From a virus (Duplodnaviria > Heunggongvirae > Uroviricota > Caudoviricetes): 8,199 bases of DNA. The translations under genes and the position numbers were made by a program. Of this stretch, positions 5,999 through 7,408 are shown piece by piece (position 1 is the stretch's first letter; each line of letters begins with the position of its first letter). The notes beneath the pieces were generated by a model, which was not told the DNA's origin, did no database searches, and worked only from the letters and a program-made list of their open reading frames with translations. The DNA is taken from IMG/VR virus record IMGVR_UViG_2698536307_000012; one strand, written 5' to 3'.

Positions 5999-6045
5999 TT
6001 GACTTTTTGAATAACTTTGGGGAAACTTGACACCAATAATGGGCG
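5999..6045 (+). promoter_or_regulatory. pR'-like late promoter with Q-utilisation (qut) region
   Basis: -35 TTGACT (5999-6004), 17-bp spacer, -10 GAAACT (6022-6027), then a -10-like AATAAT at about 6035-6040. The block aligns with recalled lambda pR' (TTGACTtattgaataaaattgggTAAATTtgactcAACGAT). The -10 hexamer is degenerate relative to lambda, and similarity to lambda ends just after this block. Confidence 0.6.
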
Positions 6046-6235
6046 TTTTTTACATGTCATTGATGAGTCTCAATAACCTGCCGCCGAGTAGTTTTTATGC
6101 TCTGAATTGTATTTGTGTAGTAAACATGCTGACTGCAATGTAATAGAGTTTTTTTAGCCTGTAACCTCTTGACGGCATTGAATTGCTTTTGTTATGAGTT
6201 GTAAGCCAATGTTATCATCTTGTATTGGGGTGGTT

Positions 6236-6712
6236 ATGAAGGATGGTGCGCTGCTCAGGAGTTCTTCACTTTTTATTGCCTACATGGGATGCCTTGGATG
6301 GGGGAGTGCTTATTTCTATGGATGGGGTACTTCTTTTTACTACGGCTTCCCATGGTGGATTGTAGGTGCAGGTGTTGATGATGTTGCCAGAAGTTTATTT
6401 TTTGCAGTTATCGTCATTGCTATATTTCTTATCGGTTGGGGTATTGGTGTTGTATTCTTTTTCGCAGTGAAAAGAAAACATTCTATGCAAGAGCTAAATG
6501 TATTTCGCCTTTATTTTGCTGTGGAATTATTGTTTGTGCCGGCAATTATTGAGTTTTCTATATTGAGACAGAAGATTCAGGTACCTCTTTTGCTACTGTC
6601 AGCAGCGATTGCGCTGGCGGTTACAATTTCGATAAGATCTTATGGGCGATTTTTATCGGTATCATGCTTCTATGATAAGCCATTTATAAAAAACATTTTT
6701 TTGAGATTGTGA
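6236..6712 (+). CDS. Hypothetical integral membrane protein (about 4 predicted TM helices), AT-rich cargo gene
   Basis: ORF in the late-operon orientation. ATG at 6236 is preferred because of the G-rich GGGGTGG 5 nt upstream; in-frame ATGs at 6194 and 6209 lack an SD. Four hydrophobic stretches (LFIAYMGCLGWGSAYFYGW..., SLFFAVIVIAIFLIGWGIGVVFFFAV, LYFAVELLFVPAIIEFSIL, VPLLLLSAAIALAVTISI). Low GC. Stop overlaps the next ORF's start (ATGA). No family recognised. Confidence 0.55.
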   Translation: MKDGALLRSSSLFIAYMGCLGWGSAYFYGWGTSFYYGFPWWIVGAGVDDVARSLFFAVIVIAIFLIGWGIGVVFFFAVKRKHSMQELNVFRLYFAVELLFVPAIIEFSILRQKIQVPLLLLSAAIALAVTISIRSYGRFLSVSCFYDKPFIKNIFLRL

Positions 6713-6951
6713 TGATTGCTTTTGTGGCATATTTCTGGCTTTTTTCATTTCTGACAGGATATTACAAACCGCAGTTTAAGAAAGAATATGAAATGATTAA
6801 TTATAATGATGGTTGGTATTATGTTCTTGCTCGTTATGATAATTGTCTGGTTTTGTCTACTTCTTTCAATGCAGGTAGTAAAAGGTTTGTCATTTATCAA
6901 TCAGCACAAGATAAGAATCTTCAGGTTGATATTGTAAGGACCAGAATTTAA
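6709..6951 (+). CDS. Hypothetical small protein (80 aa) with N-terminal TM anchor, translationally coupled to the upstream membrane protein
   Basis: ATG at 6709 overlaps the upstream stop. N-terminal hydrophobic segment MMIAFVAYFWLFSFLTGYY, then a ~55-aa polar domain (KPQFKKEYEMINYNDGWYYVLARYDNCLVLSTSFNAGSKRFVIYQSAQDKNLQVDIVRTRI). AT-rich. No recognisable family and only a weak SD. Confidence 0.45.
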   Translation: MMIAFVAYFWLFSFLTGYYKPQFKKEYEMINYNDGWYYVLARYDNCLVLSTSFNAGSKRFVIYQSAQDKNLQVDIVRTRI

Positions 6952-7381
6952 TTGGCTGCATAAATAATATTTTAAGTTGCAAGTTGGCTATTCGTAGGAA
7001 TAGAACCTTAGGCATGCTGAATGCGTTTTCTGAACATTGTTTTATAAACTGTGTCTGCTTGCTGTTGTGATCCTGCTTTTAGTGATGGTGATGATGGATT
7101 TCACCAGCAGGATAATGTTGGTACTGACTGATGGCGCTCTGGTCTGCGGCATTGTGGTATTGCTGTGGCCGATGATGAAAGAACAGAATGAATAATTCTT
7201 GACTTTTTTGTTTACTGTTTATTAAAAAACCAACCGCATGGTGAATCCTCCTTGGAGGGGCTAAATGATCGAGTTTTAAGGGCACGTAGCGAGTTCTGTT
7301 TGATCATTGCAGAACTTAGCGGGAGGCGCCATGCGTACATCACTAATGTTATTTCCTTCTATCATTTTCCTTGTGAGTTCT

Positions 7382-7408
7382 GGCTGCGCATGGCGCGGCC
7401 TTTTTTTT
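7382..7408 (+). terminator. Intrinsic (Rho-independent) terminator
   Basis: 8-bp GC-rich stem GGCTGCGC (7382-7389) / GCGCGGCC (7393-7400) with one G-U wobble and a 3-nt loop, immediately followed by T8 (7401-7408). It sits 87 bp upstream of the esterase start and about 1.35 kb downstream of the pR'-like promoter. Confidence 0.7.

Follow-up and report, generated by a model that had tools for sequence, protein, structure and literature searches.

Late gene expression in phage lambda is governed by the antiterminator Q, the late promoter pR' with its qut site, and the terminator tR', located at +193, where the constitutive pR' transcript (6S RNA) normally ends. Such a proximal terminator is the documented norm for lambda, 21, phi80, 82, P22 and the Shiga toxin (Stx) phages; in Stx phages, the 3' end of the pR' transcript was mapped 258 nucleotides (nt) from pR', and the RNA produced is StxS (PMC7547250). 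The late genes of Stx phages are likewise gated by antitermination, and a moron occupies the slot from pR' to a small RNA (sRNA) of the STnc100/PasD type ahead of the esterase gene, with STnc100 lying downstream of stx2 (PMC4104026; PMC12370729). The general arrangement Q - PR' - moron - sRNA - conserved open reading frame (ORF) was reported by Tree et al. (PMC4104026), and this layout, like the sRNA PasD and the protein TciB, has thus already been described. Here, we analyzed the junction between Q and a sialate esterase gene in a virus sequence of 8,199 nt (IMG/VR record IMGVR_UViG_2698536307_000012), called the window below, which covers the nin-to-late region of a lambdoid (lambda-like) prophage of E. 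coli. In the lineage to which the window belongs, tR' is a decayed relic, and the first efficient terminator downstream of pR' is predicted to be that of PasD, at a distance of about 1.37 kb. The membrane-protein cargo located in between is probably transcribed mainly from a promoter of its own.

The pR' promoter was located by alignment with lambda at 5999-6027 on the plus strand, with a -35 element TTGACT (5999-6004; a 5/6 match), a spacer of the optimal 17 nt and a -10 element GAAACT (6022-6027). The spacer matches at 14 of 17 positions that of lambda, which holds the Q-binding element. The same alignment identified qut-type early-transcribed elements at 6027-6043 on the plus strand, namely, a -35-like TTGACA (6027-6032), a -10-like AATAAT (6035-6040) and a GGG ending at 6043, whose lambda counterparts at the same positions are TTGACT, AACGAT and GGG. 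By analogy, AATAAT is predicted to be the inducer of the sigma-70 pause, with +1 near 6034/6035. Judged by these matches, the lambda-like pR'/qut apparatus appears to be intact. Similarity to the lambda-Q-type phages stops at 6036-6043, right after the promoter/qut block, as a preliminary description of this DNA had stated. The -10 element differs from TAAATT in lambda, and the two changes, T to G at -12 and T to C at -8, lowered the score of a rough position weight matrix (PWM) by 3.6 bits, from 12.9 for lambda pR' to 9.3. GAAACT is confined to the terminator-less lineage, where it is nearly fixed, with only a few members keeping TAAATT or TAAGTT. The comparison identifies GAAACT as a derived, weaker form of the -10 element, in agreement with the earlier suggestion that a degenerate -10 may lower the basal level of transcription. 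Natural variation at this element was found within the lineage (loci L008, L029, L038, L076 and L090 from IMG/VR), a minority retaining the lambda form; such variants provide natural material on whether promoter strength was tuned after the loss of tR'.

Terminators were searched for by three methods: a consensus scan, a free energy (dG) scan of hairpins abutting U-tracts, and a score, d, of the d'Aubenton-Carafa type. All three agreed that no canonical intrinsic terminator is present between 6034 and 6236, and a single site of the window, at 7382-7408, qualified as strong. The consensus scanner reported zero terminators within 6034-6236, and the only find of the dG scan there was a weak, AU-rich hairpin of 51 nt (6099-6149) before a run of seven U residues (U7). 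The d scores were -16 to -21 for this hairpin and -33 for a second structure, the relic described below. As controls, tR' of lambda scored +7 to +15, tR' of phage 434 scored +19 to +28, that of PP2, a prophage from strain E2348/69 of enteropathogenic E. coli (EPEC), scored +16 to +23, and the site at 7382-7408 scored +53. The preliminary description had found no hairpin followed by a U-tract in this interval. The lack of a canonical terminator was confirmed by the computational prediction that it had proposed; its wording needs correction in that the leader does hold the remnant of a tR' and the AU-rich hairpin with U7.

The remnant, located at 6075-6096 on the plus strand, consists of a decayed hairpin of the phage 434/82 type followed by U5, and its counterpart by alignment is the annotated terminator of phage 434 (OL657226, 42034-42059). 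Comparison of AACCTGCCGCCGAGTAG-TTTTT in the window with AACCCGCTGCCGAGTGGGTT-TTTTTT in phage 434 showed that the window copy carries three substitutions and has lost 4 nt, and with them most of the 3' arm. The hairpin dG is -1.2 kcal/mol for the relic versus -10 to -11 kcal/mol for the intact 434-type structure. Among about 110 IMG/VR contigs with the cargo leader, the relic was present in about 70 of 70 copies of the lambda-Q type, and the intact hairpin in about 40 of 40 copies of the Q82 type. The AU-rich hairpin and its U7 (6099-6155, plus strand; dG -7.3 to -9.3), a possible weak or cryptic terminator, are not conserved as a structure, since the corresponding 434-type sequence adopts a different fold with a dG of -4.3. 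In three hybrid loci (L020, L067 and L102), the relic is joined to a 6099-6155 segment of the 434 type, and neither structure is present.

A lack of terminators over 200 nt is not informative on grounds of chance alone, and it gains meaning only when related phages are compared. Other lambda-type pR' leaders in IMG/VR contigs carry a terminator with d above +15 at +57 to +193, with values of +15 at +193 for lambda-like leaders and +21 at +57 to +59 for HK97-like ones. In the lineage of the window, the best d within 300 nt of pR' was -15.7, and no tR' was found. Since the other leaders carry a good terminator and this lineage has none, the absence of tR' is, on this comparison, a lineage-specific departure from the norm of the family. 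In the literature searched, we found no report of tR' decaying across a whole lineage downstream of a lambda-type pR', nor of such decay co-occurring with a weakened -10 element, nor of a PasD terminator acting as the gate of late genes.

Three further candidates in the leader were considered and set aside. An ORF of 34 amino acids (6039-6143) is an unlikely gene or attenuator peptide, as it is frameshifted in variants of the L017 type and differs from L008 by four nonsynonymous and three synonymous changes. The hairpin GGGCG/U6 at 6041-6051 was rejected as a terminator, as it has a negligible dG and a 5' arm that falls upstream of +1. Rho-dependent termination is disfavored by the low C content of the leader (29 C versus 45 G in 201 nt), an argument from composition only.

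The site at 7382-7408 on the plus strand has an 8-bp stem with seven G-C pairs, a loop of 3 nt and a run of eight T residues (dG -14), and it is the strongest and the sole strong terminator of the window. It had been described as the only canonical terminator of this region, which holds true; however, it is the 3' end of the sRNA PasD1 rather than a terminator of the cargo or the operon as such. The segment 7236-7408 (plus strand) is identical at 173 of 173 positions to PasD1 of E2348/69 (NC_011601, 1060260-1060432), including the proposed seed UGUGAG (7372-7377) and the terminator. The reverse complement of 7369-7392 is exactly the published Northern probe (PMC8550237, Table S6 and Fig. S5). 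The PasD1 3' end, defined by RNA sequencing (RNA-seq) coverage and in agreement with the approximate size of the Northern band, falls at the equivalent of 7408 (PMC8550237, Table S6). PasD is a known, abundant, Hfq-dependent sRNA (PMC8550237), and it corresponds to EcOnc13 of prophage Sp3 of enterohemorrhagic E. coli (EHEC) (PMC4104026, supplement). Its pairing is conserved: the three natural forms of the terminator stem (7382-7400), GGCUGCGC/GCGCGGCC, GGCUGCGC/GCGCAGCC with loop AUU and GGCUGCGC/GCGCAGCC with loop AUG, differ by the change of a U-G pair to U-A, and all three can form the stem.

A promoter for PasD was identified at 7199-7228 on the plus strand (-35 TTGACT, 7199-7204; 18-nt spacer; -10 TAAAAA, 7223-7228), 8 nt before the 5' end of PasD1 defined by RNA-seq. 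Its PWM score of 7.5 is poor despite the very abundant RNA. A similar promoter, TTGACT...TAAAAG, precedes STnc100 in PhiR12_1, and in hundreds of lambdoid phages, Stx phages included, an STnc100-type gene directly precedes the esterase gene. A search with the Rfam model of STnc100 (RF02076) gave a full-length match of 37.5 bits (E value 1.8e-5), which is below the gathering score of 47, so that PasD is a relative rather than a curated member; the kinship of PasD and STnc100 was also proposed elsewhere (bioRxiv 10.64898/2026.05.13.724894). Other Rfam matches in 5950-7520 (asX2, SorX, GcvB and others) were discarded, as they were below threshold and all fell on the PasD terminator hairpin. The idea that PasD/STnc100 is a former pR'-tR' leader RNA, based on the likeness of the promoters (ATAAT..TTGACTTTTT), was also dropped, since pR' and tR' exist separately in PhiR12_1, where STnc100 with its own promoter follows 250 nt further on. 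We also noted a strong Shine-Dalgarno sequence, GGGAGG (7321-7326), and an ATG (7331) within PasD, which open a hydrophobic ORF of 36 amino acids (MRTSLMLFPSIIFLVSSGC...). Because its stop codon (7439-7441) lies past the terminator, the ORF would have no stop codon on the sRNA and would be whole only on transcripts that read through. For STnc100_1, the EDL933 homologue, ribosome coverage was reported to be high, with a value of 2.16 (PMC5331693).

To judge the origin of cargo transcripts, we used the gene-level RNA-seq values (baseMean) of uninduced EPEC E2348/69 (PMC8550237, Table S2). This strain has two informative prophages: PP4, which has the layout of the window and differs from it across the pR'/relic junction at 1 base in 321, inside the cargo coding region, and PP2, which, like Sp3 of O157 Sakai, has the layout of phage 434. 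Their leaders (window equivalents 6044-6137) differ at more than 20 positions, so that E2348/69 carries both versions. In PP4 (lambda-type Q, relic), baseMean was 6.0 for Q, 147 for the cargo, 8652 for PasD1 and 5.4 for the holin; DUF3927 is not listed, and no esterase gene is present (PMC8550237). In PP2 (Q82-like Q, intact tR'), the values were 69 for Q, 226 for the cargo, 37 for DUF3927, 11017 for PasD2, 102 for the esterase and 3.5 for the holin (PMC8550237); the cargo coding sequences of the two prophages differ at 3 nt only, so that the cargo counts are not assignable per copy, and a per-copy comparison was dropped. These data support the conclusion that the cargo is transcribed in uninduced lysogens. 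They are also in line with the earlier proposal that late genes beyond 7408 stay dependent on Q, since transcription in uninduced EPEC collapses past the PasD terminator; the PP4 holin, 400 nt downstream of it, reached 5.4 versus 8652 for PasD1. The proposal that the cargo is expressed constitutively without Q by way of pR' fared less well. The expression itself was found, but the counts do not identify pR' as its source, and the loss of tR' does not appear to be required for it, as indicated by the value of 226 with the intact hairpin of PP2. In EDL933, which has the Q82-type layout and an intact tR' as in Sakai Sp3, Z0957 and Z0958, equated with the cargo gene and its neighbor from consecutive locus-tag numbering only, gave log2 signals of about 12 on arrays and were 3-fold RpoS dependent (PMC2907692).

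A promoter-like block was found at 6165-6222 on the plus strand by scanning and by conservation. It contains TTGACG (6169-6174) and TTGTTA (6189-6194), with an 18-nt spacer, and an extended -10 element TGtTATCAT (6210-6218), and it was the sole promoter-like site that the scan found on the plus strand upstream of the cargo. When the lambda-Q, Q82-type, E. albertii and MOD1-EC7003 contexts were compared, two islands, 6165-6197 and 6208-6222, were invariant within the 58 nt upstream of the cargo start, while the flanks and the spacer varied. The block scored 11.8 bits in the PWM, the best value in 5960-7260, yet no better than the best site in shuffled sequences (median, 11.25). A prophage remnant in Escherichia sp. 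MOD1-EC7003 (L177, 2390-3990) was instructive, as it has an intact cargo gene (94% amino acid identity) and no Q or pR'. It also keeps a DUF3927 gene that has decayed, an sRNA of the STnc100 type ending in the same terminator, and roughly the first 40 codons of the esterase gene, and it is surrounded by ordinary chromosomal genes (for a BD-FAE hydrolase, SMR pumps and a class-III aminotransferase). Because the cargo appears to be expressed with an intact tR', the upstream block is conserved, and the cargo persists without Q or pR', its own promoter is probably the main source of cargo mRNA. The evidence for an autonomous promoter within 6165-6222 is only moderate.

We therefore favor the following model, to which we assign a probability of roughly 0.6. 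The proximal terminator appears to be a non-functional relic throughout the lineage. pR' would fire constitutively, weakened by the change from TAAATT to GAAACT, and in the leader its transcripts would find no effective stop; they are predicted to cross the cargo up to the PasD terminator. Cargo mRNA would most likely come mainly from a promoter of the sigma-70/sigma-S type in 6165-6222, with unterminated pR' transcripts adding a probably smaller share, and PasD would be made in large excess from its own promoter. As the first efficient terminator, that of PasD would stop pR', cargo and PasD transcripts alike and would thereby keep the esterase and lysis genes dependent on Q. Upon induction, Q would be loaded at qut, and the modified polymerase would pass the PasD terminator. 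Several points weigh against this model. All statements on initiation and termination in 6034-6236 are computational, and the hairpin with U7 at 6099-6155 or a factor-dependent process could stop pR' transcripts; Rho may act in the leader, though its low C content argues otherwise. The PWM value of the cargo promoter is not above chance for AT-rich DNA, and the same matrix scores the very active PasD promoter poorly, so that PWM scoring is uninformative here. The shared counts of the two EPEC cargo copies and the assignment of the EDL933 genes by numbering further weaken the expression argument.

In a model built on the preliminary description, constitutive pR' would, with tR' missing, be the main source of cargo mRNA, and the loss of tR' would be what turned the cargo into lysogenic-conversion genes. 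The fixation of the relic in the lineage, the lack of a credible terminator between pR' and the cargo, a C-poor leader in which Rho is unlikely to act and a cargo signal in PP4 about 20-fold higher per nt than that of the lambda-type Q just upstream would all fit such a role of pR'. This account is nevertheless somewhat unlikely, since the cargo appears to be expressed at least as well where tR' is intact (PP2; CP-933K of EDL933), since both the cargo and the block upstream of it survive intact where there is no pR', and since the -10 element is weakened in exactly this lineage; in addition, the homologues in phage 434 are annotated as conversion genes despite an intact tR'. It is unlikely, too, that the loss of tR' and the down-mutation in the -10 element represent an adaptive rewiring rather than neutral decay, by which a constitutive pR' transcript of the 6S/StxS type, normally a dead end, became a low-level mRNA that serves the tci-like conversion genes and ends at the PasD terminator. 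If true, lysogens would make a long isoform sharing the 3' end of PasD, and the terminator of an sRNA gene would have been co-opted as the functional tR' of the late operon.

Two other explanations concern pR' itself and its immediate downstream region. Most pR' transcripts might end at a cryptic terminator, be it the 6099-6155 hairpin with U7, the relic with U5, or a site of Rho/NusG action, in which case the late operon would be gated twice, like that of other lambdoid phages. The hairpin has a dG as low as -9.3 with seven U residues directly after it, and it forms in the terminator-less lineage and not in the 434-type sequence, so that it could compensate for the lost tR'. We consider this quite unlikely: its d score is well negative while all control terminators scored above zero, its stem is long, interrupted and rich in AU and GU pairs at the base, the hybrid loci do without either hairpin, and no Hfq-bound short RNA from the intergenic region between Q and the cargo appears in the EPEC RIL-seq tables (PMC8550237). 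A similarly improbable alternative is that pR' with GAAACT is too weak without activation, so that the missing tR' has no regulatory consequence and the relic reflects neutral decay after mosaic recombination. The 3.6-bit cost of the two substitutions and the near fixation of GAAACT agree with it, and mosaic joints at about 6043, 6073 and 6138 show that recombination assembled the region. However, lytic growth needs a strong late promoter, and Q, which acts after initiation, would not rescue a dead one; the -35 element and the spacer of pR' are good, and the phage genome deposited as complete for 2B8 has exactly this promoter together with the relic.

Compared with lambda, the window has the same Q family and a homologous -35 element, spacer, -10 position, -35-like TTGAC and predicted -10-like pause element, and the late operon is presumably dependent on Q in both. 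Unlike lambda, it has a GAAACT -10 element and lacks a credible terminator over the entire distance from pR' to PasD. Phages of the 434/82 type, including PP2 and Sakai Sp3, are homologous to the window from about 6073 and nearly identical from about 6138, and they share the membrane protein, TciB/DUF3927, PasD and the esterase. They differ in having another Q (Q82-like) and another type of pR', a short pR'-tR' leader, and a tR' hairpin that is intact (dG -10 to -11, U7-U9) and not decayed. As for Stx phages, the window has lost the terminator that yields StxS, and its cargo is a pair of a membrane protein and TciB, not a toxin. With regard to PasD1/PasD2 of EPEC and EcOnc13 of EHEC, the addition made here is the proposal that the PasD terminator acts as the first effective barrier to pR' transcripts in this lineage.

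Morons, in the sense of Juhala and Hendrix, are inserted genes with their own promoter and terminator. The cargo resembles lambdoid morons in being AT-rich and inserted between elements that adjoin each other in phages without it, in having a candidate promoter of its own and in being expressed in lysogens. PhiR12_1 has the order Q - pR' - tR' - STnc100 - esterase, where no coding sequence intervenes, and therefore the cargo slot is bounded by tR' on the left and by the PasD/STnc100-type sRNA on the right. The GC content is 34-40% over 6001-7200 versus 50-55% in the flanks, a dip typical of a moron. Unlike other morons, the cargo has no separate terminator before PasD, as the consensus and dG scans found none between 6951 and the PasD promoter; the sRNA terminator would serve both, and the promoter is a predicted one.

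If read-through from pR' is real, the locus would be a natural case of a lambdoid phage that has given up the proximal tR' and gates its late genes by the terminator of an sRNA gene, and a constitutive late promoter would feed lysogenic-conversion genes. The question bears on the uninduced expression of cargo at the stx position and on the production of PasD 3' ends. In the likelier case that the cargo promoter dominates, the decay of tR' would amount to a small evolutionary footnote.

The cargo had been described as membrane-protein genes in the plural. In fact, 6236-6951 on the plus strand is one gene, split in the window by a 1-nt deletion in an A-tract (A6 at 6688-6693 versus A7 in most relatives) into a 5' part of 158 amino acids (6236-6712) and a 3' ORF of 80 amino acids (6709-6951). 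The intact product is a multi-pass membrane protein of 238 amino acids; PHROG 1521 covers all of it, PHROGs 14371 and 3985 match its halves, and no Pfam family was matched. The A6 allele was shared by four sampled loci, and some truncated allele was present in about 16% (approximately one-sixth) of the loci. The A6 frameshift could reflect pseudogenization, homopolymer slippage or a sequencing error. The cargo gene is followed at 7037-7195 (plus strand) by a gene for a small DUF3927/TciB-like membrane protein of 52 amino acids (Pfam PF13064, E value 3e-14, 53 bits versus a cutoff of 25; PHROG 1470, labeled 'TciB-like inhibition of cell division or resistance to colicin'). Its homologue in phage 434 is annotated as TciB, and a literature search on tciB of phage 434 yielded nothing usable.

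The 1.6 kb around the junction was present in 682 of 5,426 complete E. coli genomes (at least 95% identity and at least 80% coverage), many of them EPEC, EHEC or livestock strains. It was also found in phage 2B8, with an identical pR' and the same arrangement as the window, and in phage 434 only from window position 6092 on. The gene order ahead of the cargo is a Dam methylase fragment, an AT-rich island with a minus-strand ORF, an HNH endonuclease, NinG, the NinI phosphatase and the lambda-type Q. The Q gene (5333-5956, plus strand; 207 amino acids) matches Pfam PF03589 with an E value of 4e-58, and its 3' end aligns with lambda Q. After the AT-rich cargo segment comes the 5' part of a NanS-p-type sialate O-acetylesterase gene (7495-8199, plus strand; Pfam DUF1737 and SASA), the first late-operon gene past the terminator, whose homologues in relatives are annotated as SASA family esterases.

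Elsewhere in the window, a second AT-rich island (801-3600; 32-39% GC) lies between ninE and the HNH/ninG genes and looks like another moron. It contains an ORF of 590 amino acids on the minus strand (1197-2969) that matches PHROG 9230 (unknown function) only; neither Pfam nor PDB sequences gave a match. About 320 nt upstream of the start of this ORF, at 3286-3338, a hexanucleotide is perfectly repeated, (TATTTC) x 8.8, which makes a candidate slippage-prone tract. Finally, an HNH-AP2 endonuclease ORF (3450-4097) overlaps the longest NinG ORF (4012-4674) by 86 nt and looks like an insertion of the homing-endonuclease type in the nin region.

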